Assembly: GCA_031402515.1 (NCBI GenBank)
Contig: JANNSK010000093.1
Coordinates: 1-58,208 of the forward strand
DNA from: Alphaproteobacteria bacterium
GTDB taxonomy: Bacteria > Pseudomonadota > Alphaproteobacteria > Rickettsiales > UBA3002
DNA: 58,208 nt
Direction: 5' to 3'
The translations under genes and the position numbers were made by a program. Under the pieces are notes generated by a model. That model searched no databases. It saw only the letters and a program-made list of their open reading frames with translations, and had not been told where the DNA came from. Shown here piece by piece: positions 1,392-30,573 of this stretch (position 1 is the stretch's first letter; each line of letters opens with the position of its first letter).

Positions 1392-2987
1392 CTACCGATG
1401 TGGCGGGCGGATGGGTGGGCGGATGGTGCCCTTGGGACGGCTCGCAGGCGTGGTTTTGCCGCCGGAAGATTCCGCTCCATCACCCGCAGGTTTAGTAGTT
1501 TCGGGCGTGGTGTGCGCCACTCTCGATCCCTGCAGCTGCCCGGAAACTTCTTGCTTTCTGGCTTCTTCAAGCGCCCGCGCCATATCCTCTCTCGACAGGT
1601 CGGGCGTGGTGGTGAGGGCCTCAAGTTTTTTTGCCAACGGATCGAATTCCTTTGGTAAGGTGGTGAGTGCGGGCTTCACTTCCGCGGGTTTACTGATAGG
1701 CCGCATCGGAACACCGATGGCGCGCAGCAGTGAAGGCTTCACCTCCACCTCCACCTTGCCGGCAAGTGATGGCAGCAGGCTGCCGGTAAAACTGGCGATG
1801 TCTGTGATTTGTTGTTTACGACCACCCGACCCCATAAGGAAGCCAGCCTCGGCTTTGCGCAGCATACGAATTGAATTGATCGCCTCCGGGAACTGATTAT
1901 GGAAGCGCATGAAATCAATGTTCGATTTTTCAATTTCCGCGACGCTATCGATGAGATTCATGACTGGATTAAAGTTATGATCGCCGCCCTGACGCTCACG
2001 AATTTCCCATAGCTCATGCGGCGTATGGCGCTTAAGCAAGTCGATCTCCGCTGTCATCTCGCGAAGCTGGTCTTCCATATCTTTATCATCAGTGATGAAG
2101 GAGCCTAAATCCAGCGGGCCTCCGCCCTCCTCAAGTTCCGCTTCAAATGCTTGATTAAAGCTATGCAGCAGCGGCGAATCATGTTCCTGCACGACTAGTT
2201 TCACTTCCTGACCCAACCTGCGATCAAGCTCCTCGAACGAGACAATATGATCGTGCTTGGCAACCGCATTACTCAGCATTTGCATCGTGGCAAAAACAAG
2301 CCGTTTGCTGTTGTCGCCGATATCATTCCCGAACAGCTGCCGAATCGATGACCTTTCCGGGCGGCCTTTATCCATATCATCAAGAAGGCCTTCGTAGTTT
2401 GTGCGCATGGTTTCCACCGCATCGACTTCTTTTTTAAGTTCGCGATATCGTTTGGCATCGCCTTGCCGTTCTTTGAGTTCCAGCTCTTTGGCAACCATGT
2501 CATGTTCGAGTGCGCGATATTCCTCTCTCAACGCATCTATTTGTTTTTTTAGCGTCGCGTATTTCGGCGCTAGTTCTTTATTGTTGGGGTGGCCGGAAAC
2601 TTTGCTCCAGTGGCTTAAAAGATGGTCAACATCCATCGGCGTCATTTTTTTGCGGTCGTAACCGGCATTGAGAATCATCTGAGGCTGCAAGCCGCTTATC
2701 TTGCCATGCAACGGATCGATTTGTTTATCGATGAGCTTTAGCCGTGCCTTGGCCGCGCGTATCTCAGCGGCCAGTTTCGGTGCCTCTGTGCCAATATCTC
2801 GCGTGGATTCCTTCATACGAGTGAGCAAAAGCACGCGCTCGATATCGTCGAATGGCCGCAGCGGCGTTAGTTTGCCGTGCTCATCGAAAGCCAGCAACGT
2901 GCTCTCGCCTTTCATCACGCGTGCGGCCTCCTCCCGTATAAATTCGGGATAACCGTCCATGGGTAATGTCGCCGCAAAGCTAGGCAT
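1392..2987 (-). CDS. orphan coiled-coil protein, 531 aa, Pro/Arg-rich C-tail (candidate effector)
   Basis: Long ORF with E/K/L-rich helical segments, no signal peptide, ends SRPKGTIRPPIRPPHR; box 34 nt upstream. Confidence 0.8.
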   Translation of the reverse strand: MPSFAATLPMDGYPEFIREEAARVMKGESTLLAFDEHGKLTPLRPFDDIERVLLLTRMKESTRDIGTEAPKLAAEIRAAKARLKLIDKQIDPLHGKISGLQPQMILNAGYDRKKMTPMDVDHLLSHWSKVSGHPNNKELAPKYATLKKQIDALREEYRALEHDMVAKELELKERQGDAKRYRELKKEVDAVETMRTNYEGLLDDMDKGRPERSSIRQLFGNDIGDNSKRLVFATMQMLSNAVAKHDHIVSFEELDRRLGQEVKLVVQEHDSPLLHSFNQAFEAELEEGGGPLDLGSFITDDKDMEDQLREMTAEIDLLKRHTPHELWEIRERQGGDHNFNPVMNLIDSVAEIEKSNIDFMRFHNQFPEAINSIRMLRKAEAGFLMGSGGRKQQITDIASFTGSLLPSLAGKVEVEVKPSLLRAIGVPMRPISKPAEVKPALTTLPKEFDPLAKKLEALTTTPDLSREDMARALEEARKQEVSGQLQGSRVAHTTPETTKPAGDGAESSGGKTTPASRPKGTIRPPIRPPHR

Positions 2988-3021
2988 ACGGCCCTTCTAA
3001 CAGCCATTTGGGCCGAGAAGT

Positions 3022-3039
3022 ATGACAATTTGATGAAGA
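3022..3039 (-). promoter_or_regulatory. PhoB/OmpR-type direct-repeat box TCTTCAT-CAAA-TTGTCAT
   Basis: 11-bp periodic half-sites, 34 nt before ATG 2987; 3018-3042 is identical to 4330-4354. Confidence 0.75.
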
Positions 3040-3073
3040 TTTTTGGTTAAACAATCGCCAAGCGGTGCTTCGT

Positions 3074-4300
3074 CTACCGATGCGGTGGGAGTTTTGGGGT
3101 AGGACGGTGGGTGCCGCGGGGGCGCGGGGGCTTGGTTTTTGGCACGGCCTCCTCGCCCTTGCCTTCTGGATGCTGCGTCACACCCCCTTCTTTTGCTGCT
3201 GCAGCAGCATCGATGGCAAGAGAATTCACATCGATATCTCGTCCAAGAACGGAGTTCTTTGTATCCCAGTTTCTGAAAACTCCATGATTCTGTGTCTGCT
3301 TGCCCTGCATGTCTTCCAGAACAGGCGTGGATCCCGGCTGTATGCGCAGCACTCGCTCCATTGATTGATGATTCTGATACAATACGAAAGAGTCGTTGGA
3401 ATCCGGTGATTTAAGGCCGACGGAAGTCGCGCCGATAGCACGAGCATAGCCCATGAACTGATCCATATAGCTACGTAAATTACCAGGTTTTGTAAACGAG
3501 ACGAAGCGGGCCACTTCAGGGAATGCAGCGATCATGTCCTCTGCGGTGGCGCCATTCAACGCCAACCGCCCTTCAGCATCCAGTAATTGTTTGAACCCTG
3601 AATCAGTGACAATAGCAATGCCATCGCGCTGGATGGTATTCACTTGCTTACGAATAGCAAACGGATCCCATTGTCCTTCCCCCATTTCCATGAAAACACG
3701 ATGGCCTTTGGGAGAGGGCGGCGGCCCCTTGATTACATCGTTATACGCCATCAATAGATTGCGCGGGAGATCGGATTGCTCGCGCCAGACAGGACCATCC
3801 GGCTTTGCTTTCAAACGCTGCGGCGCTACCGGGCTCATCGCGCCACTAAAGACAACATGAACCTTGGTTTTGTCGATACCGGTATTGGACAGCCCATTTT
3901 CCAGATAACGGGCGTTTTGTGCCATCGTATCCGTACCGTGGACGAAAATCACCCGTGCATATCCCTCCCGCTGAACTTTATCTTCAATCGCCGCCACACT
4001 GTTATTGAGATGATTGGGCGTAACACCCTTGCTGTCTTCCATAGCGATACCAAGGAATTCGACCTTATCACCCAAGCCAAGCTTTTTAAAAAGAGCCGGT
4101 ATGGCTGAGGCTTTTATGATGCGGTCAGACTGGGTAATGGGGCTGACCGCTTCCGGCGGATACAGACGCGGATCGACGATCGTGCCGTCCTTTAGCTGCC
4201 TCGGCAGTGGCACAATGTGAGGGGTGTCTTCGTGTTCCGGCGAATACAGGGAATCGCCTGTGCCACCGGTAATCACAACAAGTATTTTATTTTTCGACAT
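3074..4300 (-). CDS. asparaginase/glutaminase-like N-terminal domain fused to an unknown region and Pro/Arg tail, 408 aa
   Basis: KILVVITGGT, VHGTDTM and VVFSGAM motifs; ends PRPRGTHRPTPKLPPHR. Confidence 0.8.
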   Translation of the reverse strand: MSKNKILVVITGGTGDSLYSPEHEDTPHIVPLPRQLKDGTIVDPRLYPPEAVSPITQSDRIIKASAIPALFKKLGLGDKVEFLGIAMEDSKGVTPNHLNNSVAAIEDKVQREGYARVIFVHGTDTMAQNARYLENGLSNTGIDKTKVHVVFSGAMSPVAPQRLKAKPDGPVWREQSDLPRNLLMAYNDVIKGPPPSPKGHRVFMEMGEGQWDPFAIRKQVNTIQRDGIAIVTDSGFKQLLDAEGRLALNGATAEDMIAAFPEVARFVSFTKPGNLRSYMDQFMGYARAIGATSVGLKSPDSNDSFVLYQNHQSMERVLRIQPGSTPVLEDMQGKQTQNHGVFRNWDTKNSVLGRDIDVNSLAIDAAAAAKEGGVTQHPEGKGEEAVPKTKPPRPRGTHRPTPKLPPHR

Positions 4301-4333
4301 TCTCTTAGCTTAACGCACTGGATTATTAAAAGT

Positions 4334-4351
4334 ATGACAATTTGATGAAGA
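4334..4351 (-). promoter_or_regulatory. PhoB/OmpR-type box TCTTCAT-CAAA-TTGTCAT
   Basis: 33 nt before ATG 4300. Confidence 0.75.
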
Positions 4352-4385
4352 TTTCGCGGGCTCATGATTGAAAACCCACCATTTT

Positions 4386-6035: not shown

Positions 6036-6069
6036 ATCCTATTCTTACTCGCCCCTTACACCGCTGTGT

Positions 6070-6087
6070 GTGACAATTTCATGACAA
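6070..6087 (-). promoter_or_regulatory. PhoB/OmpR-type box TTGTCAT-GAAA-TTGTCAC
   Basis: 34 nt before ATG 6035; possible third in-phase half-site at 6092. Confidence 0.75.
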
Positions 6088-6092
6088 ATGAG

Positions 6093-7556
6093 TTAACGGT
6101 GGGCACCGCCACGTATGGCGGTTGGGCGGCCGCGATGGCCATGCGGCCGTTCCGGGAGAGGCGGCTTTTGCTTTTCGGTAGTTTCAGGCAAAGTAGCGCC
6201 ATGCGGGACAACCGTTGCCGGAGCAATGGCTGTCTGGCCATTTCCCAAAGACTCGACCGGATATTTTTGTAAAGAGTCCAAAGTTGGGGTCAGAGAAAGA
6301 TCGCGTTTGGGCCATGGCGGAAGTAGCGATTCTGCCATTGCTGCTTTCGCATGCCAGCTATTGGGAGGAAGTTTATCGAATACCGCACGTTCAAAATAGC
6401 TTACTTTTGATGCTCCCTGTTTTATCTCTACGCGGTCGGCAATGCGAGAAAACAAGGCTTCTTCATTTTTGCTCAATGTCCGGTTATCCGGGGGCAGACT
6501 GCTTTCCCTGCTACCCGTATGCGCTACACCCGAAACCTGCAAAGTACCCAAAAAGTTTGCGATACTTATACCATCCCAGTATTCCCGTATGGCGTGGATG
6601 TATTTCATGCGTGTATCGATTGTTTCTACCAGATCCGCCCATAACCGATCCTCTGGGTTTGGCATCCAACGCTCGCCGCGTGCTTCCGTGTGTAGTTTAT
6701 CCAGCATCGCCTTCGCATAGCGTTTGGAAAACATGGCATGACGTGGGCGGACCAATGAACCAGTCTCCTCCCCCGTACGCCGGTAATGAATCATCAGATT
6801 TTCGTAATGCTCGAATTGTTTAGAATCACCGACAAAAATATGCTGCTTAATTTCATGCATTAATTCTATGGCTGGCAGCATATCACCGCTAAATATATGA
6901 CCATTTTTGTAAACGGAACCGGGTGATTTCTTGTAACGAAGTAATGCATAGGTGGTCAGAAATTCAGCGGGGTCCAGTGTTGCGTCACGCCATACCGTGA
7001 GCCTTTTGCGCCCATCTTCTGTTTGTATAAGTCTCCCGTAATCCAGCCCTTCTTGATTTTTCCGCGGAATGACTGTGCTAAGTTTTGTCTGACGATCGCG
7101 ATTTAACTCCAGGCGGCTCAAGCGTGCCTCCAATCCACCATGCGCCTTCAGTAAGGCCTCGCTCCGCACAGCATTGGCTTCCGGTTGATTCGTCCATTCA
7201 CCGGCCGTGTTGTGGAGACCTTCCATCGTCACCCGTTCGCGCGCAAGATCGCGCTCTGTACCACTTTTTGCCTGATCCATGATCGGCCAACTGAAGAGTC
7301 TCATGATCTGTTGATGCTGAAGCTTATCCGGCAATGTCTGACTGGCCGCATCAAACCATGCGGCGGTAGTCTCACGCGAAACACCCAGTTTCTCCGACAA
7401 GACGATGGACGAATGCGGCAATTTGATGGTCCCCGGCTTTTCTTTTGCCGCAATCGCGGCGAGTGGTTTGCTGATGGCATCGATCCAACGCTGTTTGGCG
7501 ATTTCGCGTGGACTTCGTACCACTTTTTTGGTGTTTGCTTCAGGCATAATTGTCAC
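6093..7556 (-). CDS. orphan protein, ~485 aa, possible N-terminal HTH, Pro/Arg/His tail
   Basis: LSEKLGVSRETTAAWF resembles an XRE-type HTH; AAGGAG RBS; 17 nt after the upstream stop (operon); start may be ATG 7547; ends ERPHGHRGRPTAIRGGAHR. Confidence 0.75.
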   Translation of the reverse strand: MTIMPEANTKKVVRSPREIAKQRWIDAISKPLAAIAAKEKPGTIKLPHSSIVLSEKLGVSRETTAAWFDAASQTLPDKLQHQQIMRLFSWPIMDQAKSGTERDLARERVTMEGLHNTAGEWTNQPEANAVRSEALLKAHGGLEARLSRLELNRDRQTKLSTVIPRKNQEGLDYGRLIQTEDGRKRLTVWRDATLDPAEFLTTYALLRYKKSPGSVYKNGHIFSGDMLPAIELMHEIKQHIFVGDSKQFEHYENLMIHYRRTGEETGSLVRPRHAMFSKRYAKAMLDKLHTEARGERWMPNPEDRLWADLVETIDTRMKYIHAIREYWDGISIANFLGTLQVSGVAHTGSRESSLPPDNRTLSKNEEALFSRIADRVEIKQGASKVSYFERAVFDKLPPNSWHAKAAMAESLLPPWPKRDLSLTPTLDSLQKYPVESLGNGQTAIAPATVVPHGATLPETTEKQKPPLPERPHGHRGRPTAIRGGAHR

Positions 7557-7573
7557 GCTCCTTCATCATGTTT

Positions 7574-8923
7574 TTAAGGTCTCAGCACTGGCCGCTGCAT
7601 ACGGCTGGTCGCCGGCCGCCCTTGTGGCGATGTGTGTGTTTGCGGTTTAGCCTCCACGCCATGCGGCTGGGGCGTCGGCAATGGAGTATGGGGTGCAGTT
7701 GATTCCATGGATTCAGAAGATGGCAAGGTAGAAAGAAAACTTGAACCACCGATGGCATCAAGTGCACGATGTTTTTCGAGTGCACGATGCAAGGTTTCAG
7801 TGCGCGCATAATCGTTCAAATCTTTCTGCGCTTTATCGAGCAGTGATTTGTAGTATTCGTAGCTTGGGGTTTTGCGCAACTCCAGTGACTGCATAAAAAG
7901 TATTTTCATGGATTCATTAAGTCTGAGCACTCCAGATTCAATTCCCGCAATGCTTCTCAAGTCGATAGGTTTACCACCCGACATGTCGCTCATTTTTTGT
8001 GCTAATTCACCTTGGGTGTGGATACCCTTAATGCGCCGCAATCCATTAAAAACATAAGCCAATCGTGTATTCGGCGTCTGTTTCTCAAGCCATGCAGGAT
8101 TCAATAACGTGGTGGCGAGCACGTTTTTTTGGTAGGCATCGCCCAGAATAAGGTTTTGTCGAGTCTCTGCTGCGGATGAGTCAAGGCCGGACTTTGGCTT
8201 TGCAGTGCTAGAAAACCCTGCGTTTTCTAAAGATCGCGGCTCTGCATCCGGATACGCGTAATACGCTTTTCGTAGCCATGGTCCATGCGCTTCATAAACT
8301 CCACCACGCTCCGCATTCAGCGCGCTTTCAAGTTCGTTAAACGGTAAACTTGTCGGCTTAATTCTAGATTGAGACTTCTCAATACCAAACACGTATGATC
8401 TGGAACGCCCGTCGTCACCAAGTAATTGACCGACCTCTTTCGCACTCATTCCCTGTGCTTTACGGAGACGCTCAAAATAGCGGCCGAACCATTCTTTTTG
8501 CGGATATTGACTGATTTCAGCCCATAACTTTTCGGGCGGCGGTAGCGGTGGCCGTGTATATTTCCCCGGATTTATTTCCCCATAATGTTCATAAGCCGTC
8601 TGAAATTGTGCTTTATATTGATTAAACGGGCTCTGATCTAAATTAAGCCCACGTACCCAAAGTTTAAATTCATAATTCGTGGGGTTATTGCCGGGCCTGA
8701 ACTTCTCGATCTGACTAACAAATGCCCCCGTTACCCCGAGTACTCTAGCAATATCGGTCTGCGGTAACGGCATGCCCACACGCGTGGAAGGCTGTAATTC
8801 CCGGATTCGTTTTAGCAGATACCCGAATTCTTTCCGCTTATCGCCTTGCGTAAAAGCAGCGACTTCTTTCGCCAGTTCTTCTGGCGCTGGCAGCGGTTTT
8901 GGTGGTGTATATTTTTCAGCCAT
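7574..8923 (-). CDS. triple XRE/Cro-type HTH repeat protein with Pro/Arg tail, 449 aa
   Basis: Three HTH-like units: QTDIARVLGVTGAFVSQIEK; MSAKEVGQLLG..SYVFGIEK; TQGELAQKM..SIAGIESG. Confidence 0.8.
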   Translation of the reverse strand: MAEKYTPPKPLPAPEELAKEVAAFTQGDKRKEFGYLLKRIRELQPSTRVGMPLPQTDIARVLGVTGAFVSQIEKFRPGNNPTNYEFKLWVRGLNLDQSPFNQYKAQFQTAYEHYGEINPGKYTRPPLPPPEKLWAEISQYPQKEWFGRYFERLRKAQGMSAKEVGQLLGDDGRSRSYVFGIEKSQSRIKPTSLPFNELESALNAERGGVYEAHGPWLRKAYYAYPDAEPRSLENAGFSSTAKPKSGLDSSAAETRQNLILGDAYQKNVLATTLLNPAWLEKQTPNTRLAYVFNGLRRIKGIHTQGELAQKMSDMSGGKPIDLRSIAGIESGVLRLNESMKILFMQSLELRKTPSYEYYKSLLDKAQKDLNDYARTETLHRALEKHRALDAIGGSSFLSTLPSSESMESTAPHTPLPTPQPHGVEAKPQTHTSPQGRPATSRMQRPVLRP

Positions 8924-8957
8924 CCCACCTGCATAGCTGAATCTGAAGGCGAGTTGT

Positions 8958-8975
8958 GTGACAGTTTTATGACAA
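8958..8975 (-). promoter_or_regulatory. PhoB/OmpR-type box TTGTCAT-AAAA-CTGTCAC
   Basis: Near-perfect match to the Pho-box consensus CTGTCAT-AWAW-CTGTCAY; 34 nt before ATG 8923. Confidence 0.8.
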
Positions 8976-9015
8976 TTAATATAGGAATTCGCGCATTATT
9001 GCGGCGCAAAATTTA

Positions 9016-9876
9016 CTACTGCGTGCTCTCCGCGGCGAAACTATTCAGGAAAAACAGGCCGCAGGAGGGGCTGGTATAATCCTTGTCATACTTGGCGGTG
9101 GAGGGAACGTTGGTGGTCGAGCAGTTCGCTTGCGCGGTGTTGTTCCAGCCGCGCATATCGCCTAATCCTGGCAACCCATCATCCGCTTTATTATCAAGGC
9201 TATAGGCTTGTTTACCGCTGATAGCCGCCGCAGTCGGGTAGCTGTTGGTCGTGGTGGTGCCGTAAACCAGTACATTGTCGTAATCGCCGTCGAAGCGCGA
9301 AGCGTCAGCACTCAATGTCCCAAAACTATCGAGGAAGAACGTCGTGTTCTTGACCGCGGTGAGCGGGCTGTTGGTGCCGGGTATGGCATAGCGGATGTTA
9401 CCGGTCGCATAGATACCGGTGAATTTCCCTATGACCATTTCGGCAGCGGCAAGCTGTTGCCATGCACGGAAACTCTCAAAGCTCGCCGCTTCGATAAGCC
9501 CGTCGCCATCGCCATTGCAGGTGGTTTTGCCGTCGCTGGCATCCGTCGCAGGAGCGGCGCAGTTCGTGGTGAGGTCGGCATTTCCGTCCGCTTTGCCCCA
9601 GACCCGCACGGCAGTCGAAAAATCGCCAGGCAGTTCACCGTATTTGCTTTTGAACAAGGTCAAAGCGTGGCGATAGCTTGTCGCGTCCGTCAGGATGCCA
9701 CGCACGCGTTGTTCCACAAGCAGGCTTTGGCCCATTAGCACCCCACCCGTCAAAAGGCCGATGATGGTGATGACGACGGCCATCTCGATAAAAGTAAAGC
9801 CTTGAGCCGACAGCCGACAGCCTTTAGCTTTTTTCTTTTTTAGCTGATGGCTGCTAGCTGTTGGCTGCCCACTCAT
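9016..9876 (-). CDS. type IV pilin/pseudopilin-like protein
   Basis: G|FTFIEMAVVITIIGLL prepilin cleavage/methylation motif after a basic leader; Cys pairs. Confidence 0.9.
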   Translation of the reverse strand: MSGQPTASSHQLKKKKAKGCRLSAQGFTFIEMAVVITIIGLLTGGVLMGQSLLVEQRVRGILTDATSYRHALTLFKSKYGELPGDFSTAVRVWGKADGNADLTTNCAAPATDASDGKTTCNGDGDGLIEAASFESFRAWQQLAAAEMVIGKFTGIYATGNIRYAIPGTNSPLTAVKNTTFFLDSFGTLSADASRFDGDYDNVLVYGTTTTNSYPTAAAISGKQAYSLDNKADDGLPGLGDMRGWNNTAQANCSTTNVPSTAKYDKDYTSPSCGLFFLNSFAAESTQ

Positions 9877-10415
9877 ATCGGTAACCCCAACAACTCATAG
9901 AGCTCGCGCTTGGTGTTGACGACTTGGTAAAACTGCCGGGTTTCCGGCCGGGCAAAGCCGACGGAAATCATTTGCTCCAGCAGCTCCACCAAGAGATCCC
10001 AGTAGCCATTATGATTGTAGATGACGACCTTCTTTTGGTGAATCTTGATTTGTCGCCAGGTGATGACTTCGAACATTTCGTCCAGCGTGCCGAAGCCACC
10101 GGGAAGGATGACGAACGTATCCGCGTTGTCGTACATGATTTGTTTGCGCTCGTGCATCGAGTCCACAAAATGCATTTTGGTGAGGCCTTTATGCTCGACC
10201 TCGATACGCCCCAGCGAGCGCGGGAATACGCCGATGACTTTGCCGCCTGCGGCGAGCGCGCCATTGGCCGTTTCACCCATGAGCCCGCAATCGCCGCCGC
10301 CATAGACAAGCTGGCGGCCAGCTTTCGCCAGGTCGTGCCCAAATTCGTGCGCCATGGTAAGATGTTCCGCTGGCACTTTTTGCTGGGCACCACAAAACAC
10401 ACAAATTGAACGCAT
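9873..10415 (-). CDS. LOG-family nucleotide phosphoribohydrolase (TIGR00730-like)
   Basis: ICVFCG, LVYGGG..GLMG, MHERK, PGGFGTLDE. Confidence 0.92.
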   Translation of the reverse strand: MRSICVFCGAQQKVPAEHLTMAHEFGHDLAKAGRQLVYGGGDCGLMGETANGALAAGGKVIGVFPRSLGRIEVEHKGLTKMHFVDSMHERKQIMYDNADTFVILPGGFGTLDEMFEVITWRQIKIHQKKVVIYNHNGYWDLLVELLEQMISVGFARPETRQFYQVVNTKRELYELLGLPI

Positions 10416-10499
10416 ATTCGATAAAGAATCACTCATAGAAGCGCGTGACCATAAGGATTCTGTAGAGCTTTGCAAGCGGCGCTGCGAAAAAAAACGCCG

Positions 10500-11030
10500 C
10501 TAGCGCTTCGATTCCGCCGAGAGCGTGGCTTCTTTCAGGGGTTCACCGCGAATCCGCCCCTCGGCGAGCACGGTCGTTGTGGGTGTATTGCGCCCCTCGA
10601 AAGCAATCTGCTGACGTAGTTGTTCGTTTTCGTGTGCGAGATAGCTGTTGGCAGATTCGTATTGCTTTAATCGTAGCACGCTTTTATCGACTGCGTTGAT
10701 GTCGTATTGCTTTTTTGTTTGCTCTTGCCAAAGATTAAAGGCCATCCAGAAGGTGCCGATTTTAAGGCCCCAGCCTTCGCCGTTGAGCAGCACCATTTGT
10801 CCAGTTTTCTCGGAGGCTTCAAGAAGCTTATCGCCCGCTTTTCTCAATCCAAAAAGTCCGTATGGCCGGGCGAACCAGCTGCCCTTCCACTGCCGCGCCA
10901 GCACGAAGCCACCGACAGTCGCCGCAATCGGCAGGATAATCTGCGAGGCGGTGGCCTTGAGATATTGGCCGACCGTCAGCGTGCCGCTTTCACGATCACG
11001 GTAAGCGCGGGTTTTTAGTATCTCGGACAT
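10500..11030 (-). CDS. orphan membrane/coiled-coil protein, 176 aa, paralog of the upstream gene
   Basis: Hydrophobic helix plus coiled coil; aligns by eye with 11035-11577. Confidence 0.75.
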   Translation of the reverse strand: MSEILKTRAYRDRESGTLTVGQYLKATASQIILPIAATVGGFVLARQWKGSWFARPYGLFGLRKAGDKLLEASEKTGQMVLLNGEGWGLKIGTFWMAFNLWQEQTKKQYDINAVDKSVLRLKQYESANSYLAHENEQLRQQIAFEGRNTPTTTVLAEGRIRGEPLKEATLSAESKR

Positions 11031-11034
11031 GGGG

Positions 11035-11577
11035 TTAATGAATAATACGATTTTCAGGAGTTTCGGAAGCGGCTATTTTTTCCCGCCACGATCCTGCGGG
11101 TTTGCTGCGTATTTTTGGCGCGACTTCTTTTTCCTTCAGCATCGCCCACAGGCGCTGGTTTTCTCGTTTGAGTTCGGGATCGGTTTTTTTGAACAGTTCG
11201 ATATCGGAAATATCTTTGGTAATTTCATCCACCTGCAACTGTGCTTGCTTTTCTTTTTTCCAATGGCCGTAGCCGAGGGTAAGTCCGCCGATGAGGCCGC
11301 CGAATGCCGCGCCGCCAATCGCCACCCACATGGCTTGCAAACTCGGTGCTTGTTTGAGCCCGGGCCATGTCGATAGACGGCCAATTAAATCCTTCCAGCC
11401 TTTTTCAGCCATCATTGGATTGTCGGGGAACCATTTATTTCCCAACGCAAGTCCGCCCCATACACCGGCGACCTGACTGCCAACGATAACGGCCATCTCA
11501 TACAGCTTCTTCACCATGTAGCTGCCGAAGCCCAGCTTAGCGTCGTAATCGCGATTCGTGTCCTGCCCTGATGGCAT
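11035..11577 (-). CDS. orphan Gly-zipper membrane/coiled-coil protein, 180 aa
   Basis: Two Gly-rich hydrophobic helices then a coiled coil; AAGGAG RBS. Confidence 0.78.
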   Translation of the reverse strand: MPSGQDTNRDYDAKLGFGSYMVKKLYEMAVIVGSQVAGVWGGLALGNKWFPDNPMMAEKGWKDLIGRLSTWPGLKQAPSLQAMWVAIGGAAFGGLIGGLTLGYGHWKKEKQAQLQVDEITKDISDIELFKKTDPELKRENQRLWAMLKEKEVAPKIRSKPAGSWREKIAASETPENRIIH

Positions 11578-11623
11578 AGAGACTCCTTCATGTTTAGAAT
11601 AGCTTATTTACCCGGTGAGTAGT

Positions 11624-11641
11624 GTGAACCTTTTGTGAAGA
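11624..11641 (-). promoter_or_regulatory. degenerate box TCTTCAC-AAAA-GGTTCAC
   Basis: Same 11-bp periodicity; 46 nt before ATG 11577. Confidence 0.6.
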
Positions 11642-11687
11642 TGGAACTGGTAATCCGCTGAATTCTATGTATTTATCGATAAAGTCT

Positions 11688-18968: not shown

Positions 18969-19002
18969 AGTATAGCAGGGAATTGTTACAGTTTGATGAC
19001 AG
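18969..19002 (-). promoter_or_regulatory. Pho-type promoter: box CTGTCAT-CAAA-CTGTAAC, 10 nt, then -10 TATACT
   Basis: Box at 18985-19002; canonical box-10 nt-(-10) geometry. Confidence 0.8.
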
Positions 19003-19644: not shown

Positions 19645-19772
19645 AATGATTGCGCGTGTTTATGGTTATGGCTATTTAATGAAGCCGGTAGCTTACAGTC
19701 TATAGCTAGTAGCTACAAGCTGTAGGCTGTTGGCTATTTTGGTGACTATCAAATAGCTCGAGGAAGGGTATC

Positions 19773-21191: not shown

Positions 21192-21202
21192 GGCCTTAGC
21201 AA

Positions 21203-21220
21203 TTGTCATCAAATCTTCAC
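21203..21220 (+). promoter_or_regulatory. PhoB/OmpR-type box TTGTCAT-CAAA-TCTTCAC
   Basis: On the + strand, matching the orientation of the downstream + strand orphan (61 nt). Confidence 0.72.
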
Positions 21221-21281
21221 ATTCAACAGCCTAAATATATGTTAAATTGGGCCTCTTAGACTTGTAGATAGGAGACTCCCA

Positions 21282-21548
21282 ATGCCGGAAGCAGAGAACA
21301 AATTCAGTGATGAAGAAATCAAAAAAGCATGCGAGGCGTATGGCCAAGCCAGTTGGACGGCTGATATCAAACTTGGGCCACCAGGCCCCACTATTGAAGA
21401 CAATCAAAAGATCTACACTCAGAAATGTGTCTGGGCTAATCAGCGCCTAGATTCCGTAGACAAGAATTTAAGAATTCCCAATCTTATTACGGATGGGGTC
21501 ATCAGAAAAACCAAAGATGGCAATTACGAGCCAGTGCCTCGCCGCTAA
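21282..21548 (+). CDS. small orphan protein, 88 aa
   Basis: AGGAG RBS, upstream box, AT-rich. Confidence 0.65.
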   Translation: MPEAENKFSDEEIKKACEAYGQASWTADIKLGPPGPTIEDNQKIYTQKCVWANQRLDSVDKNLRIPNLITDGVIRKTKDGNYEPVPRR

Positions 21549-22276
21549 TACTCCAAATACGGCACGACGCTCGGCAGCACGATATCGATGACGCCAAAAT
21601 GGCCATCGGTTGGAGTCGCTGACAGTGGCTGCATATCAAGCATCACCCGCTGACGTGCTTCGATCGAGAGTTTCTTTAGCAACGGATCTTGGGAATTGCG
21701 ATTATCACCCGTGAAATAAAGCCGGGTGGAGAAGGCTGGCATATCCTCCGCGTTAATGCGAAGATTGAAATTCGGTGCGTGAATGATGGTGCGGATAATC
21801 TTGCCATGCTCATCGCGCACGTATGTTCTGGTTTCCGCCGGGAAGGCGGTGATAAAGGAAAAATTCCCCTCGTTATCGGTATAAGTGCGCCCAGCACCAG
21901 CAAAAACCGGATTGGGCGTGGCGATATCCTCCGGCATGGCGAGAATCCATTTCCCGTACGGATCAACTTGCCAGAGCTCGATAATCGCATTCGGCACCGG
22001 CATGCAATTTTTGTCGAACAAACGCCCCATGAGGATCACACGCTGGCCTTCCGCTTCGATGGATTTTCCAGTCGGCTTCAGGAGATGATTGGTCGTGGGA
22101 ATACGGTGAACACCGGGATAATTGATGGTTGCCAGTTTCGGTGTGGGCAAACAGGTTGGCTCCGCTAGCGCTGTTAACGGTATAGCCGTTAACAGAAACC
22201 ACGAAATTACGAATCCACGAATCCACGATTTCCTCATCGTGATTTCGTACATTCGCGATTTCGTACATTCGGTCAT
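21545..22276 (-). CDS. intradiol dioxygenase-fold (PcaH-like) exported protein, probably non-catalytic
   Basis: GRLFDKNCMPVPNAIIELWQ, GAGRTYTDNEGNFSFITAFP; signal-like segment; alternative start 22237. Confidence 0.8.
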   Translation of the reverse strand: MTECTKSRMYEITMRKSWIRGFVISWFLLTAIPLTALAEPTCLPTPKLATINYPGVHRIPTTNHLLKPTGKSIEAEGQRVILMGRLFDKNCMPVPNAIIELWQVDPYGKWILAMPEDIATPNPVFAGAGRTYTDNEGNFSFITAFPAETRTYVRDEHGKIIRTIIHAPNFNLRINAEDMPAFSTRLYFTGDNRNSQDPLLKKLSIEARQRVMLDMQPLSATPTDGHFGVIDIVLPSVVPYLEY

Positions 22277-23352
22277 GCCGCCTCACTAAGCTGTTTCAGT
22301 CGATCATCCAGCCGGGTGGTGTGTTCATGTAATAAATCAGCGGCCACCAAGGCTTGACGCGCTTCGGCAACCCACGCGGATTCATCCGGGTTGTTGGCGG
22401 CACCGCTGCGTTCGGCCTCAAGGGCGATTTCGCTCATGCGCTGGATCAGGCTGGCGATTTCATAGATAATTTTCATCGCTTCATGATTGGCCGTGCGTGT
22501 CTCGTCTACCGCGCGTGTGGCTTGTGCACTGGCAGCACGTGCATCATTGGCCAGGAGACGCATCGCCGAAACCGCGGGGGCGGCATTCACATCATTTTCG
22601 TCGTGGGCGGCGGAGATCGCTGTGTTTACTGCGACGAGATCGCTTTTGATGGCGAGCTGGTCGATCAACGTGGTGAGGGCACCGATCTTTTCTGACGCGT
22701 TATGCATATTTTTGATGGTGTATTGAAAAGTTTTTGCATGATCGAGTGCGTGGCGGATGGCAAGCAACAGGCGTTCCGAGCGCGCCCAGTTCGTGTGCGG
22801 CGGGGCCTGATCGGCGCGAGCGATAAGATCGCGCGACATCATCTGCATTTCCTGCGCGGTTTGGCGCAGGCTTTCCAGTTCGGTGACGAGTGGATTGATA
22901 TTCATTTGCGCCGGGATTTCGAGCACCGGCATCTCGGACTGCTGGCGCAACATACTGTAAAGCGGGCAAGAGGTGAGCTTATTCACATAGACTTCATCCT
23001 CGCCCGTATCAACGGCAGCTTCGCCTTTACGGATAATGAGGTCAACGATATCGAGAAGGTTGTTGAGCCGGTGTTGAAATTTGCCCCAACCATCCAGTGC
23101 GTTGATGCTGTTGACGCGGGCATCGAACGAACCACGAATGAAGGAGCCCACCGCATTGCTCGCTTGCTCGATACGTTGCTGCATGTGGCTGGCGCGCAGG
23201 ACAATCAAAAAGCCCGAAAGGCCTGTAATCACCAACGCGCTGATTTCCACATGTAACGGCCAGTGCATGGCCACAGCCAAAAGCGCCACGATACCGGCAA
23301 AACCCGTTATCATCCCCAGCTGGCGTATGCGTCGTAAATTCTCCGAACCCAT
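22273..23352 (-). CDS. degenerate methyl-accepting chemotaxis-like membrane protein
   Basis: Two TM helices, HAMP-like segment, IDQLAIKSDLVAVNTAISAA resembling the MCP tip; start inferred. Confidence 0.65.
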   Translation of the reverse strand: MGSENLRRIRQLGMITGFAGIVALLAVAMHWPLHVEISALVITGLSGFLIVLRASHMQQRIEQASNAVGSFIRGSFDARVNSINALDGWGKFQHRLNNLLDIVDLIIRKGEAAVDTGEDEVYVNKLTSCPLYSMLRQQSEMPVLEIPAQMNINPLVTELESLRQTAQEMQMMSRDLIARADQAPPHTNWARSERLLLAIRHALDHAKTFQYTIKNMHNASEKIGALTTLIDQLAIKSDLVAVNTAISAAHDENDVNAAPAVSAMRLLANDARAASAQATRAVDETRTANHEAMKIIYEIASLIQRMSEIALEAERSGAANNPDESAWVAEARQALVAADLLHEHTTRLDDRLKQLSEAA

Positions 23353-23446
23353 CCCGGCCCCGTTTCTGAACACAAGGCGACAGTAACCGAGCCTGCTCAA
23401 CCGGAGCAAGAGGAATCTCCCTATTACCCTCATTGCAAGTAGGAGG

Positions 23447-25543
23447 TTAATGAATCGTTGAATTGCCGGGAAGCTGGACATCCGCGTGTTTGCGATCGCC
23501 GACGCTATCGGCCCAGCCCTGATTCTGCGCCGTTTCTTCTGGTGTGGTATGACGCACATGCATCGGCGGCGGGCCGTTATATTGCACCGTGGTCGCCTGC
23601 ACTTTGGTGCTCGGTGTCATATCGATTTTTGGGTTGAGGACGATAGTGGTTTTGGGCGTGCCGGGCGCAGCGGCAGGTTTTTTCGGTTTGTCGTCATCCT
23701 CGTCCTTGACGATTTTGCGGCCCTCGAAATACTTCGCCGGTTTGCTTTGAAGGTCAATGGCAAGTCCGCCGATTTCTTTCACGGATTTGCCGGCTTTGCC
23801 TAACTGCCATGAAGAAAGATTGTCGATGAGCCCGTAGATGGCCTTGTCCATTCTACCGTTCTCACCGGTTGATGGGCTGTCGTTCACCCGCAGACCGAAT
23901 TCATCCTTGGCGATGAAGTAAGGCGTATAAGACATCGCGGCATCGACATAGGTGCGCAGGAAATCTTCGCGACGCCACAGTTCTGGTGTGCCGCCGGGGC
24001 CAGCCATAATTTTCGACAGGCGGCTGCCAACGGGCAGCACCGCATCGATGGCATGGTTAAGTCCAGAGCCCAAAGTGAAGCACATCCAACCGAAGGGGCT
24101 CAATAGCTTGGAGGTGAGTGATGGAGAGTTCTCCCAGGAGAATAACCCCTTCTCCTTTAATGATTTGGGAAACGGCACTTTTTGGTCGCTGAAATGGATA
24201 AAGTCCGGACGCGCCCCATTATGCAGCCCACCGGTAGGCCGCAGCCCACGATTTGTTTTCGAGACACTGCCATACGCCTGACTGCCCGCCGTGCCCCCCT
24301 GCAATAAACCTTTGGGATGCGAGTCCCATGTGCCGACAGAACTTTGTCCTGGCTGCGCATTCTCCAGAATAAACTCCGAACGCCACTTGCTTTGCGGTGT
24401 GCGGGTGATCCAGAAGAACGGTACCGATGGCTGCATGAACAGGTTGGCCTTGATCGTGCTTTTGATGAGGTAACGGCCGATGGTGCTTAACCCATCGATC
24501 ACGCTGGCGATCGGGTTGCTTGGGATGTGGAAATCAAACGATACGCCGTGTTTGTAGGCATGATAGAGCCTGCGGCCGATGCCATCGTAAATCTCGCGAT
24601 ACATCAGCGTGAAGACGTTGTAGCCGACGAACCTGCCCTGCAGGTCGAGAAGTCCAACGAGCTGATGGTCGCCGACGATATCGCCCTTATCGTTGACGAT
24701 GTAGGAGCCGCCGTTCCTGTTGCGATCCGAGCTATAAGCGAACGTCGGAACGAATTTTGACAGCATGTTGCGCTGCCACCTTAATTGATAGACATAAGGC
24801 AGCGCCGCAGCCCAGTCTTCACCAGCGTTTTTGGTGACGACGCGCCAGCTGGCACGACCCACCGCATGCGCCCATTTGCCGAAATCAAAATGGCCCTTAT
24901 CGCGCGTGGTTGCATTACCATTTTTATCAATCCACCATGGTTGCGGCAGGTTGGGATCGAAGGCCTGAATCATGTTGCGTACCGCGCCGTCGCCCAGCGA
25001 CATCGCCGCGAAGTCATACGTCACCGCAACCACTTCTGCACCGAGGCTGCGCCCCATCTGCATGCCTGCAACATTATGATAATAATTCGTTGGGCGGAAT
25101 CGCGTGACCGTTTTCGCCCATTCGGGATTCATCCATTTGGCAACAGTTTCGATCGGCTTTCCGGCAACATGGTCGAAGACATTCGCAACATATTGCAGTG
25201 GCTTACTGCCTTTGCCGATGAATTTTTCTTTGCCCCAGATGAAGGTCGATGGGTCGTAACCGAATAGCTGATTGCTGGCGTAGCGCGTCGCGAAGGCAAA
25301 CGATAGCGCACCGAAGATGCCGCGCGAAATGGTGCGAATCGCCATCCGCCCCTGTGTGCTCGACGCCCAGTTTGGTTTGGCGTTATAGTCGGATAACACA
25401 TTGCGCCCGTAGAGATATTCCTCCTGCGCGCTCGGACCATCGACGCCGAAATACGGCTCGGCCTCATCCGCAGGTGCAGTCGTCTCATCCAGCGGCGGAA
25501 CGTCGCTTGGCGATTTCTTTTTCTCTGTGTCGTCGTCTGACAT
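23447..25543 (-). CDS. large orphan protein, 698 aa
   Basis: Long ORF; acidic N-terminus, aromatic/Gly-rich core, P/T-rich tail. Confidence 0.8.
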   Translation of the reverse strand: MSDDDTEKKKSPSDVPPLDETTAPADEAEPYFGVDGPSAQEEYLYGRNVLSDYNAKPNWASSTQGRMAIRTISRGIFGALSFAFATRYASNQLFGYDPSTFIWGKEKFIGKGSKPLQYVANVFDHVAGKPIETVAKWMNPEWAKTVTRFRPTNYYHNVAGMQMGRSLGAEVVAVTYDFAAMSLGDGAVRNMIQAFDPNLPQPWWIDKNGNATTRDKGHFDFGKWAHAVGRASWRVVTKNAGEDWAAALPYVYQLRWQRNMLSKFVPTFAYSSDRNRNGGSYIVNDKGDIVGDHQLVGLLDLQGRFVGYNVFTLMYREIYDGIGRRLYHAYKHGVSFDFHIPSNPIASVIDGLSTIGRYLIKSTIKANLFMQPSVPFFWITRTPQSKWRSEFILENAQPGQSSVGTWDSHPKGLLQGGTAGSQAYGSVSKTNRGLRPTGGLHNGARPDFIHFSDQKVPFPKSLKEKGLFSWENSPSLTSKLLSPFGWMCFTLGSGLNHAIDAVLPVGSRLSKIMAGPGGTPELWRREDFLRTYVDAAMSYTPYFIAKDEFGLRVNDSPSTGENGRMDKAIYGLIDNLSSWQLGKAGKSVKEIGGLAIDLQSKPAKYFEGRKIVKDEDDDKPKKPAAAPGTPKTTIVLNPKIDMTPSTKVQATTVQYNGPPPMHVRHTTPEETAQNQGWADSVGDRKHADVQLPGNSTIH

Positions 25544-25596
25544 TAAAAACTCACACTATTACAGGTTAATAGTACCACAAATCAGGTGATTCTGAT

Positions 25597-25698
25597 GTGA
25601 AGGTTTTGTGACAATAAGGAGAGTTTTGTGACGGTTTGATGACCAACTAAACCTCTGAACAGCCGAAATATTTCAGTTGTGTGAAGTTTGCATGACAG
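25597..25698 (-). promoter_or_regulatory. three boxes in the divergent intergenic region
   Basis: 25597-25614 TTGTCAC-AAAA-CCTTCAC; 25628-25645 TGGTCAT-CAAA-CCGTCAC; 25681-25698 CTGTCAT-GCAA-ACTTCAC. Confidence 0.72.
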
Positions 25699-25777
25699 CG
25701 GCTGTTTTTACTCGGGGATGTGGGCGATTTCCTGTAAAATCAGAACAGAGAAATTGCTAAGGAGACACCATAGCGAA

Positions 25778-28351: not shown

Positions 28352-28366
28352 CCTTCATTTATTTTA

Positions 28367-28440
28367 TCATTCTGGCGAAAGCAGGAATCTCCTGCAATAA
28401 TGGTTTTTTTAAGGAGATCCCTGCTTTCGCAGGGATGACA
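28367..28440. repeat. REP/RPE-like palindrome between convergent orphans
   Basis: TCATTCTGGCGAAAGCAGGAATCTCC ... GGAGATCCCTGCTTTCGCAGGGATGACA. Confidence 0.75.
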
Positions 28441-28448
28441 AATGTAAG

Positions 28449-29721
28449 TTACATCAACGCATTCACCGACATCTGCTTACCTTGCGGCAAACCAGCTTGT
28501 GCCTGCACCGTCTTCACCGAAGCGACTGCTAGTCGATGATTCGGAATATCCGAATCAATCAACGAAGCGAAGCTGGTGCTTGCTTCGATGGGCGAGGCAT
28601 CGGTGCGGCCAGCTCGCACTCGGGTCTGCCGGTCGATGTCGTCGAGTACCTGCTCATTTGTATAGTGTGACTTTATGCCAACAACGCCATAGTCGATATG
28701 GGTGCCGCCCGCTTTTGCGAATTTGGTCAACGCATCGATTAATTTAATGGCCGCCTTCTCTGATTCTTTTGCTGTATCCCAAGAATGAATGGTAAATGGC
28801 ACGGTGAGTTGCACCATTTCACTCCCCCTTACCGGTATTTCGGCAGTCATTTCGAGATGTTTATCCGCATACTGGCGGAAATACCATCGTACTTGCCGTT
28901 CGTTGGTTTTTACCGGCCCAATGATTGTACCAAGCGGCTCTTCAAGCGCTTTCCACAACGCCCAGATAATTTGCCCAGCGTCCTGCTTATTGCTTTCCAG
29001 TTTGGGTACAGGATCGACTTTCGGTTTTTTATGCAGTCTACCAATCAGGACGGCGATGGTGTTACGCTCGCTGGGGGTTAGTCGTTCTGAAGGACGAATA
29101 AAACTAGTGTTATGGTCAGACGATACACTGAGTTGACTGGTACCTTCATAATGCATCCAGACTCCCTCAGACTTAATCTCATCCATGGGTATCATTTGCC
29201 CGGGCCCTTTTGGATGATGCACGAGACTGACCGGATTTCCCCATTGCTTCATCAACTCTTCGACTTTTCGCTGCTGTGGCGACGCGATATGGTGCTCACG
29301 TAATGCGTTATATTTTTCCCTGAGATACACAATGACGGGTTCCGTGCCGTCCGATGATGCGGAAACGAAAGGAACAAAATTGTAATCGGGCTGGATCGCA
29401 CGAATGTCCGCAATGAGTTGTCCGATTTTTTCGGCATACATGCGGGCGGGATATTCAGCGCCCACTTTAACCGTCACCGCCTCTCCCAACCCTTCGGATA
29501 GGCTAACGGTAAAAAAATAGTCCGTCGTTTTTCCCAATCCGGAATGTCCCTCAATCGGGCTTAACGTGTCCCTCAATCGGGCTTAACGTAAAGGCAGGCC
29601 CGTTGGTTTTAGCAGAAGTCGACCCTTTCGGCAGCGCGTCTTTTGCAGATTTGCTGCCCGATTCTCTTCCTTTCGCGCCTGCCGCTGGCCTAACACCGAC
29701 TCTGCTAACACTTCCAACCAT
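28449..29721 (-). pseudogene. orphan gene (416 aa if repaired) frameshifted by a 22-bp tandem duplication
   Basis: AGGAG-ATG at 29721 opens MVGSVSRVGVRP..AFTLSPIEGH; removing one copy of 29545-29588 joins it in frame to the 375-aa ORF. Confidence 0.8.
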
Positions 29722-29734
29722 GATATTCTCCTGA

Positions 29735-30484
29735 TTATGCTTTTGCGGTTACTGTTGTTGGCATTCGCTGCGGCACATTGGCCTGAGCCTGCGACGTTTC
29801 CACCGAGGCCACCGTCAATTGATAATTCGAGATATTCGAATCTATCAGAGCAGCAAAATTCTTTTTTTGTTCGGTAGGTGAAGCATCCAAAGATTGCCCG
29901 TGTTTTTCGCGCCATGCTTTCAGTTCAGGTGAAATTCTACCTAAGCGAATTTCTTCGACAGTTTCATCGAGTATCCACATGACCTCAAAACCATCTTCGC
30001 CGCTAAAGGATGGAACGCGGATATGTTCGCCGCCCGGTTTGCGCTGGGCATCACGAATATACTCAACGTTTTCAGCAATAACTTGTGCCATGGCATTGGT
30101 TATTGGTCCACCCACGCGCACGAGGCTGGGTGTCAATGAAGGTTCAGAGCGTATATCAGCACGTGGCGTCACCGTCACCATACCACCCATGGGGCGAAAC
30201 GCGAAGTTTGGTCCGCCCACGACATTGACATCGGCGTGCATGATTCCTGCTGCATCTTCACCATAAAATGTGGCCGGAAAGCGCTTGGCGCTTTCGAGCA
30301 TAAACGCCACATCGTGTTTTTGGTTGGCATCTAAATTAGACGATGTATCAAGCAACTTCTGTTCGATGGCCGTTAGCCCGCGATTGTTACCTACCTGTTT
30401 CAACGCATCCATGTTCGAGGCGCCGCGTCTGCCTGCTTTTGCAACGGGACCTCGTCCACCCATTTTGCCAATGCCACCACCCAT
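29735..30484 (-). CDS. orphan protein, 249 aa, sharing N- and C-terminal modules with the downstream gene
   Basis: AAGGA RBS; C-terminal DASP..FAALIDSNISNYQLTVASVETSQAQA. Confidence 0.78.
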   Translation of the reverse strand: MGGGIGKMGGRGPVAKAGRRGASNMDALKQVGNNRGLTAIEQKLLDTSSNLDANQKHDVAFMLESAKRFPATFYGEDAAGIMHADVNVVGGPNFAFRPMGGMVTVTPRADIRSEPSLTPSLVRVGGPITNAMAQVIAENVEYIRDAQRKPGGEHIRVPSFSGEDGFEVMWILDETVEEIRLGRISPELKAWREKHGQSLDASPTEQKKNFAALIDSNISNYQLTVASVETSQAQANVPQRMPTTVTAKA

Positions 30485-30555
30485 GTTGATTCCTTAATAA
30501 TATGAAGGTTGGTTCCTAATGGAACCCGCTTTAGCAGACTCTTTTATTAATGTGT

Positions 30556-30573
30556 ATGAAGATTTTATGACAA
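30556..30573 (-). promoter_or_regulatory. PhoB/OmpR-type box TTGTCAT-AAAA-TCTTCAT
   Basis: 71 nt before ATG 30484. Confidence 0.72.

Follow-up and report, generated by a model that had tools for sequence, protein, structure and literature searches.

The window analysed here is an entire contig of 58,208 nt (C93, JANNSK010000093.1) from a 1.97-Mb assembly of an uncultured alphaproteobacterium of the order Rickettsiales (121 contigs, 55.6% G+C, 98.9% complete), and it carries 11 copies of a tandem direct repeat, here called the box, in front of genes most of which match no Pfam family. These 11 sites are not due to chance: the motif is real and part of promoters, and of the roughly 170-210 sites that make up this promoter class, 11 lie in the window. 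With moderate confidence they are predicted to be binding sites of an OmpR/PhoB-family regulator in extended -10 sigma-70 promoters, the organism's own PhoB being the most likely protein; that the regulator activates and does not repress, which protein it is and what it senses are all deduced from sequence. The mechanism, an OmpR/PhoB-type activator, is familiar, but the regulon is unfamiliar in its size, its content and its missing classical targets, and a literature search that did not cover supplementary files found no published description of it. The DNA of the window was found in four DNA runs, all freshwater sediment metagenomes of one study, and in no RNA run, and the metagenome bins with homologues of one window protein are labelled "Rickettsiales bacterium" or "Alphaproteobacteria bacterium" at NCBI.

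Direct-repeat boxes in extended -10 promoters

Each box consists of two 7-mers, (T/C)(T/C)(G/T)TCA(C/T), arranged with an 11-bp period and an A-rich spacer. In the direction of transcription the consensus reads A-T-(T/C)-(G/T)-TCA-(T/C)-(A/C)AAA-(T/C)-(T/C)-(G/T)-TCA-(C/T)-A-(C/T), within which the TCA-N8-TCA core is invariant. The original prediction, made from the letters of the window, had listed 11 direct repeats of 11-bp periodicity at 3022, 4334, 6070, 8958, 11624, 18985, 21203, 25597, 25628, 25681 and 30556, and all 11 are present at these coordinates. Ten are located on the - strand and one (21203) on the + strand, where it precedes the + strand orphan at 21282, as had been described. 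The finer details were equally accurate: sites 3022, 4334, 6070 and 8958 lie 33-34 nt from an ATG, and 3022 and 4334 have 25 identical bases in common.

A 21-nt matrix was built from the 11 window sites, which score 22.4-33.0 bits against it, and the genome was scanned with a threshold of at least 18 bits for strong sites and at least 14 bits for a wider set. The scan, which the original prediction had proposed, returned 173 strong sites in the 1.97 Mb (11 of them in the window), against 0-4 in ten 5-mer-block shuffles of the genome and 0-5 with 20 column-permuted matrices. Nine of the 173 fall within confident coding DNA, which makes up 78.8% of the genome, and the other 164 lie outside it. 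The housekeeping genes of the window are not preceded by the box, again as had been noticed: the housekeeping half of the window (30,600-58,208) contains no site of at least 14 bits, and the flanks of its best match (13.9 bits at 43193) do not show the arrangement of box and -10.

Downstream of the box, the 214 sites of at least 14 bits share a promoter. Column counts reveal a conserved G followed by T-A-n-n-n-T, which corresponds to an extended -10, and an excess of A about 7 nt beyond it, at the expected transcription start; a -10-like hexamer is found at 196 of the 214. Three spacings between the end of the box and the hexamer predominate, 22 nt (66 sites), 10 nt (28) and 33 nt (12), each one helical turn from the next, and with the hexamer as reference the half-sites begin at -51, -40, -29/-28 and -17. 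Promoters with half-sites at -40/-29 were assigned to class A (71 promoters) and those with half-sites at -28/-17 to class B (21 promoters, not counting some that have three or four half-sites), the TGn extension of the -10 being present in 41 of the 71 and 16 of the 21, respectively. In E. coli the Pho box lies about 10 bp upstream of the -10 and replaces the -35. This spacing (9-11 nt) occurs in 27 of the 173 strong sites, including 18985, while 77 lie at 21-23 nt and 10 at 32-34 nt, 45 have other spacings and 14 are without a good -10. The promoters are classed as sigma-70 type, with an extended -10 (TGnTAnnnT) and without a recognisable -35. A direct repeat of 11-bp period whose two registers differ by one helical turn is characteristic of a winged-helix dimer bound in tandem, and not of a -35 element; the fixed distances from the -10 and the two registers agree with the winged-helix OmpR/PhoB operator geometry that had been suggested from the window.

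Genes follow these promoters closely, with an open reading frame (ORF) of at least 40 aa within 300 nt after 180 of 181 promoters and at a median of 31 nt past the -10. Target genes were set by a crude rule of our own, as the first ORF after the promoter, and in 25 of the 165 the start codon lies 0-9 nt after the -10. The window ATGs at 2987, 4300, 6035 and 8923 are located 5-6 nt past the hexamer, so that leaderless mRNAs are predicted for these four. Within the window, site 18985 belongs to class B, 25628 and 25681 are extra upstream boxes, and the other eight show class A spacing (21-23 nt), the -10 having been placed by eye for 4334, 8958 and 30556 and the second half-site of 11624 lying below the scoring threshold. 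Since 25597, 25628 and 25681 all point at 23447-25543, the 11 boxes mark nine transcription units. The claim that every orphan unit carries a box goes too far: an exception is an 887-aa ORF without Pfam match (25688-28351, + strand), which is divergent from the triple-box promoter and has no box in its own direction, the best + strand match being 8.5 bits at 25536.

The box is also conserved beyond this genome. Forty relatives were compared, comprising 24 other genomes of the same family and 16 genomes from other families of the order. In the present genome the exact pattern KTCAYNAAANYKTCAY is found 98 times, and in all 24 family members 17-107 times per genome, where the same pattern read backwards occurs 0-1 times; in the 16 genomes of other families the counts are 0-21, with 0-3 in the controls. 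The gene for the 698-aa target (23447-25543) has homologues in 24 of 24 family genomes (37-54% identity), and a box of at least 16 bits is located upstream of the orthologue at all 23 loci with upstream DNA, two loci being cut by contig ends. In a box-anchored ungapped alignment of 22 of these sequences, from which G004 was left out as its best match is the distal box, the information per column amounts to 1.69 bits in the box and 1.07 bits in the extended -10, against 0.26 bits in the upstream flank, 0.30 bits in the spacer between box and -10, and 0.29 bits in the first coding bases. High information in the box beside poor flanks is the footprint of a functional site, and indicates that the box is under selection. 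The 5' leader of the 698-aa gene, reaching about 25 nt past the -10, is conserved across the family as well. By contrast, the 531-aa target (1392-2987) has no homologue among the 40 relatives, which means that the regulon holds both family-wide and species-specific genes.

PhoB as the candidate regulator

In the proposed mechanism a phosphorylated regulator dimer would bind the two 7-mers head-to-tail and would recruit RNA polymerase from either of two positions that differ by one helical turn, the box ending 21-23 nt before the -10 in the class A position and 9-11 nt before it in the class B position. The regulator would most likely be the organism's own PhoB, driven by the PhoR kinase. The nine units of the window would then be part of a Pho regulon that has grown greatly, to about 165 fast-evolving genes of uncharacterised function that are induced together, the presumed cue being phosphate limitation or whatever PhoR senses in this lineage.

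The genome encodes six OmpR-type winged-helix domains, which belong to PhoB, CtrA, an OmpR-like protein (contig C97), a KdpE-like protein, a PmrA/CopR-like protein and a 179-aa protein on contig C71. PhoB is the one protein above the TIGR02154 cut-off (330 bits vs. 296), and CtrA is likewise above its own cut-off (413 bits). CtrA binds a different motif. The recognition-helix stretch of PhoB differs from that of E. coli PhoB (PDB 1GXP) at 2 of 17 residues, and both changes are conservative. The E. coli Pho box is described as two CTGTCAT repeats with a 4-nt spacer, and chromatin immunoprecipitation sequencing of Caulobacter PhoB as yielding 98 sites with two YGTCAYR repeats and an A-rich 4-nt spacer (bioRxiv 10.1101/741363). 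The 11 window sites and the 173 genome sites fit this published consensus of two 7-bp repeats around a 4-nt A/T-rich spacer, which together with the E. coli-like helix makes PhoB the likeliest regulator. The idea of a "Pho-box-like" operator for an OmpR-family regulator stands as far as the family is concerned; what changes is that the match to the PhoB consensus points to PhoB rather than to a protein of the PmrA/CpxR type, and one concrete regulator can be named as candidate.

The distribution of the pattern is consistent with PhoB, which is present in 24 of 24 family genomes. Four of the compared genomes are without PhoB and contain 0, 0, 2 and 10 matches; inspection of these 12 by eye left one at most that looks like a promoter. 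The genome with 10 matches (G038) was considered as a counter-example and set aside, its matches looking by eye like chance occurrences in AT-rich coding DNA, with one possible exception 20 nt from TAGAAA. Sister families that do have PhoB show 0-21 matches, so that an ordinary Pho regulon seems to have expanded in this family. The two distances from the -10 need not imply two proteins, because for Salmonella PhoP activation is described with the box either 12 nt or 21-23 nt upstream of the -10 (PMC3335776), and one regulator can thus use both. The PmrA/CopR-like regulator (C12:25037-25699) was excluded, having no orthologue above 44% identity in the 40 relatives while the box is found in all 24 family genomes.

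Several observations weigh against PhoB. A search for boxes before phoBR had been proposed; the 10.4-kb phoB contig has no site of at least 8 bits and none is located near pstC, where 0 of the 18 family loci scanned show a site of at least 10 bits within 1.5 kb; the PstS-like gene in four relatives also has no site of at least 9 bits nearby. With the pstC locus and the phoB contig both lacking a box, the identity of the regulator can only be inferred. About half of the class A half-sites read CTTCA, where the published consensus has YGTCA, and in 51 of 71 class A boxes one half-site is TGTCA and the other CTTCA, both orders being found. Such pairing would not be predicted for a simple homodimer. 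Finally, the OmpR-type regulator on C97 is conserved across the order and offers a second candidate. A search for autoregulation found no box of at least 14 bits within 5 kb of any of five OmpR-type regulator genes.

That the boxes are bound not by PhoB but by this conserved C97 protein (C97:11991-12695), possibly a CenR orthologue, is unlikely, though it has more in its favour than any other alternative. Its orthologues, 62-74% identical, occur in all but one of the 24 family genomes and elsewhere throughout the order, and the pst and phoB loci lack the box. In addition, CenR sites are described as direct repeats of TGA-N8-TGA, whose complementary strand reads TCA-N8-TCA like the core that is invariant in the box, and activating CenR sites as lying upstream of the -35 (PMC9275681). 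However, the CenR consensus fixes six bases only and is matched by any Pho box, whereas the box shares the full 7-4-7 pattern with PhoB sites. The C97 protein itself matches the OmpR model best (218.8 bits, below the cut-off) and differs from PhoB in the helix region, and three genomes that have a C97-like protein (39-45% identity) but no PhoB show no clear boxes. The Rhodobacter regulon described for CenR also comprises envelope and division genes, not orphans (PMC9275681).

The differences between the two promoter classes raise the question of two regulators, PhoB acting on class B (TGTCA-rich, 10 nt) and another protein or a mixed pair on class A (TGTCA and CTTCA, 22 nt). Half-site content does differ: CTTCA(C/T) accounts for 66 of 142 class A half-sites and 3 of 42 class B half-sites, and TGTAAC as proximal half-site is confined to class B (7 of 21 promoters, as compared with 0 of 71 in class A); the mixed pairing in 51 of 71 class A sites points the same way. 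Against such a division, both classes drive the same kind of orphan gene, the 26 class B targets scanned include no Pho gene, and the C-terminal arginine bias described below is the same in both. In the sister species G010 all four half-site combinations look common by eye among the matches listed, and for PhoP one regulator with two distances and architecture-tied submotifs is documented (PMC3335776). A split between two proteins is judged quite improbable. The related notion that class B represents the "true" Pho regulon was rejected, none of the 26 class B targets scanned being phosphate-related.

It is very improbable that the repeat is no regulator site at all, but serves an alternative sigma factor as upstream element or is a short sequence that was copied along with duplicating genes: nine sites share all 21 nt, seven others are identical among themselves and the sites are moderately clustered (variance 1.57 vs. 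mean 0.94 per 10 kb), but the flanks of identical copies are unrelated in each case, only 9 of 153 target proteins fall into paralogue groups, the -10 is of sigma-70 type with a TGn extension, and an 11-bp direct repeat in two one-turn registers is what a tandem winged-helix dimer leaves.

The phosphate genes of this lineage have some features of their own. In the present genome (C30:17401-24041) phoR is followed by a box, two orphans (184 and 151 aa, without Pfam match), a small ORF pair that is toxin-antitoxin-like (BrnT/BrnA-like by reading of the translations) and then pstCAB; in the relatives G002 and G014, the gap from phoR to pstC is shorter and contains a single ORF of about 210 aa. 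The genome's only PBP_like_2 (PstS-like) gene is located apart from pstCAB, at the end of the window (56571-58208), where it begins 1 nt after an upstream ORF without Pfam match that runs off the contig, and no box lies nearby. At E ≤1e-40, pstC was not found in 6 of 24 family genomes (G004, G005, G009, G016, G019 and G020, 88-100% complete), all six of which keep PhoB and five of which keep a PhoR-like kinase (278-295 bits); in G019, which is 100% complete, a PstS-like protein is absent as well. The PhoR-PhoB pair may work without the Pst transporter in such genomes. The 179-aa protein on C71 (C71:2122-2661) consists of an OmpR-type winged helix only, with a degenerate N-terminal part, and adjoins ORFs of 1392 and 1368 aa, taken by their size as rpoC and rpoB.

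Target genes and their arginine-ended tails

The roughly 165 target genes amount to close to a tenth of the gene set of this 2-Mb genome, and one switch probably controls them all. Six of the nine first genes in the window have no Pfam match, the others showing a partial asparaginase match, a partial S11 peptidase match and a helix-turn-helix (HTH) domain. Genome-wide, 127 class A or unclassed targets match 24 Pfam families in total, each by a single member (e.g., one ankyrin, one RTX protein, an aquaporin), as compared with 239 families for 127 random non-target genes from the same loci. Among class B targets, 6 of the 26 scanned (two short ORFs of 58 and 41 aa were left out) have any Pfam match (EF-hand, PG_binding_1, a weak Menorin, TPS, Peptidase_C93 and Peptidase_S11). 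Paralogy is rare, with 9 of 153 targets in four small groups. The large, dispersed and lineage-specific gene set that had been envisaged is therefore found, with few Pfam families relative to random genes, and the motif does serve for genome-wide mining, given the number of targets and the abundance of the box in all 24 family genomes.

Comparisons of targets with other proteins are approximate throughout, because the non-target control set comes from a crude gene caller. The G+C content at third codon positions is 57.4% in targets and 66.3% in other genes, and many targets are missed by a gene caller based on codon usage; both features fit young, fast-evolving or acquired genes. Targets have fewer membrane helices and more disorder-promoting residues than other proteins. 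The suggestion that they are probably secreted is not supported in the Sec sense, a signal-peptide-like N-terminus being present in 3% of targets vs. 20% of the others. The 698-aa target yields a confident all-helical model (predicted local distance difference test 79.5, predicted TM-score 0.80), and its 116 homologues are all unnamed and without Pfam domains. A Foldseek search of the PDB with the model gave no match at E ≤0.001 (best E 0.39, whole model), the best VIA-align hit (Z 7.2, UCP1, root-mean-square deviation 4.8 over 215 residues) is within the noise for helical models, and the ESM Atlas returned no usable match; the protein was accordingly given no fold assignment.

The unrelated target proteins share a Pro/Arg C-terminus, which is a new finding. 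Of 136 complete targets with at least 100 aa, 37 (27%) end in Arg, as compared with 116 of 1432 other proteins (8%), an excess that also holds over the targets' own Arg content of 5.9% (binomial p = 3e-15). The last 20 residues carry a net charge of +1.46 in targets and +0.65 in others (Mann-Whitney p = 3e-5), whereas whole-protein charge is equal. Pro is enriched two- to four-fold over most of the last 12 positions, and tails of the form P-x(0-3)-R-x(0-1)-end occur in 24 of 136 targets vs. 35 of 1432 other proteins. Both promoter classes are affected, terminal Arg being found in 18 of 62 targets for class A and in 7 of 24 for class B. Among the window proteins, those ending at 1392, 3074, 4386, 6093 and 21548 have a terminal Arg after a Pro/Arg-rich tail, and the one ending at 7574 has the same type of tail with Pro as its last residue. 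Arg codons and stop codons are mixed, which makes the tail a feature of the protein and not of the DNA.

Type IV secretion substrates are described as bearing a C-terminal signal of a few positively charged residues (PMC8714903), and basal Rickettsiales families as carrying an rvh type IV system of unknown substrates and purpose, for which one published proposal is the killing of other microbes (PMC11077975). The present genome encodes two VirB4 homologues (C108 and C94) and one VirD4 (C106); TssC, a component of type VI secretion, was not found in it. A search for boxes before virB and virD4 had also been proposed, and none of at least 18 bits faces these clusters within their contigs. On C108 there is no box of at least 8 bits; on C94 an 8.6-bit + strand match precedes a virB3-like gene and a 23.4-bit box faces away from that gene; and the 23.5-bit box of C106 points away from virD4, in a contig whose end cuts off the starts of the operons. 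Arg tails, scarce Sec signals and a common promoter together fit a set of type IV substrates. It is tentatively proposed, as a possibility short of an even chance, that the box marks the effector repertoire of a VirB/VirD4 (rvh-like) system, comprising some 150 unrelated, fast-evolving proteins that lack signal peptides and of which many would use the Pro/Arg tail as translocation signal. These would be induced together by a PhoR-PhoB pair uncoupled from phosphate transport and repurposed as an attack or host-contact switch in these early-branching relatives of the Rickettsiales.

The 46-nt promoter signature and the C-terminal Arg tail together allow candidate type IV substrates to be listed from sequence throughout the family. 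A two-component system of housekeeping type seems to have gained control of close to a tenth of a small genome, nearly all of these genes being orphans, while its classical targets are without a site, and this bears on how new genes are wired into regulation. The coordinates of the boxes and their targets are collected in Table 1.

Table 1. Boxes and target units in the window. Scores refer to the 21-nt matrix and distances run from the box end to the -10; operon membership of target units is putative (for 9016..11577, from short intergenic gaps).
Feature	Position	Strand	Details
Box, class A, 30.0 bits	3020..3040	-	22 nt upstream of -10 TAGAAG (2994-2999); ATG 2987, 6 nt past -10
Target gene, 531 aa	1392..2987	-	No Pfam match; Pro/Arg tail, terminal Arg
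Box, class A, 30.0 bits	4332..4352	-	21 nt upstream of -10 TAAGCT (4307-4312, by eye); ATG 4300, 6 nt past -10
Target gene, 408 aa	3074..4300	-	Partial asparaginase N-terminal match only; Pro/Arg tail, terminal Arg
Box, class A, 30.7 bits	6068..6088	-	23 nt upstream of -10 AAGAAT (6041-6046); ATG 6035, 5 nt past -10
Target gene, 549 aa	4386..6035	-	No Pfam match; Pro/Arg tail, terminal Arg
Box, class A, 33.0 bits	8956..8976	-	Best of the window, textbook Pho box; 22 nt upstream of -10-like TATGCA (8930-8935); ATG 8923, 6 nt past it
Target unit, two genes	6093..8923	-	7574-8923 (449 aa, HTH_31 domain); 6093-7556 (487 aa, no Pfam match, terminal Arg)
Box, class A, 24.1 bits	11622..11642	-	22 nt upstream of -10 TATTCT (11596-11601); ATG 11577
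Target unit (putative operon)	9016..11577	-	11035-11577 and 10500-11030 (no Pfam match); 9873-10475 (LOG/lysine-decarboxylase-like); 9016-9876 (N-methylation motif)
Box, class B, 24.5 bits	18983..19003	-	10 nt upstream of -10 TATACT (18969-18974); ATG 18944
Target gene, 327 aa	17961..18944	-	Partial Peptidase_S11 match only
Box, class A, 31.9 bits	21202..21222	+	Only + strand box of the window; 22 nt upstream of -10 TAAATT (21243-21248); ATG 21282
Target gene, 88 aa	21282..21548	+	No Pfam match; C-terminus Pro-Arg-Arg
Main box of 698-aa gene, class A, 29.0 bits	25595..25615	-	22 nt upstream of -10 TACTAT (25569-25574); ATG 25543
Second box of 698-aa gene, 26.7 bits	25626..25646	-	Upstream of 23447-25543
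Third box of 698-aa gene, 22.4 bits	25679..25699	-	Distal box at similar distance in about 9 orthologous loci
Target unit (putative operon)	21545..25543	-	23447-25543 (698 aa, orphan); 22273-23559 (no Pfam match); 21545-22276 (dioxygenase-like)
Box, class A, 32.3 bits	30554..30574	-	22 nt upstream of TGc-TAAAGC (-10-like hexamer 30528-30533); ATG 30484
Target unit (putative operon)	28449..30484	-	29735-30484 (249 aa) and 28449-29576 (375 aa), neither with Pfam match

Comparison with known regulons

The CenK-CenR regulon of Rhodobacter sphaeroides is described as sharing an 11-bp-phased direct repeat with a TGA/TCA core, but its consensus is far less informative and its targets are conserved envelope and division genes (PMC9275681). 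By contrast, the targets found here are mostly without family, as the 24 Pfam families among 127 of them indicate.

In the PmrA regulons of Legionella and Coxiella, a tandem box at a fixed distance from the -10 precedes many unrelated, lineage-specific Dot/Icm effector genes, which can be mined by means of it. Box and genes are arranged alike here, the tandem repeat keeping a fixed spacing to the -10 and the genes behind it being numerous, unrelated and lineage-specific. However, the sequence of the box differs, the PmrA/CopR-like regulator of this genome is not conserved in the relatives, and the secretion system is of the VirB4/VirD4 type, with the translocation of the targets being hypothetical.

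An architectural parallel is the PhoP regulon of Salmonella, in which a single OmpR-family activator is described as using boxes 12 and 21-23 nt from the -10, submotifs correlate with architecture, and ancestral and acquired genes differ in architecture (PMC3335776). Regulator, box sequence and organism are different.

The PhoB regulons of E. coli and Caulobacter resemble the present one in the 7-bp direct repeats (CTGTCAT and YGTCAYR, respectively) and the A-rich 4-nt spacer, and the roughly 100 sites described in Caulobacter are a precedent for a large regulon (bioRxiv 10.1101/741363). Further points of likeness are, for part of the sites, the position of the box in the -35 region of sigma-70 promoters without a -35, and a PhoB orthologue with a near-identical recognition helix in this genome. 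Unlike in those regulons, the pstC and phoB loci here are without a box, half of the class A half-sites read CTTCA, most boxes lie a further helical turn away from the -10 (21-23 nt), and the targets are about 165 orphans instead of phosphate-acquisition genes.

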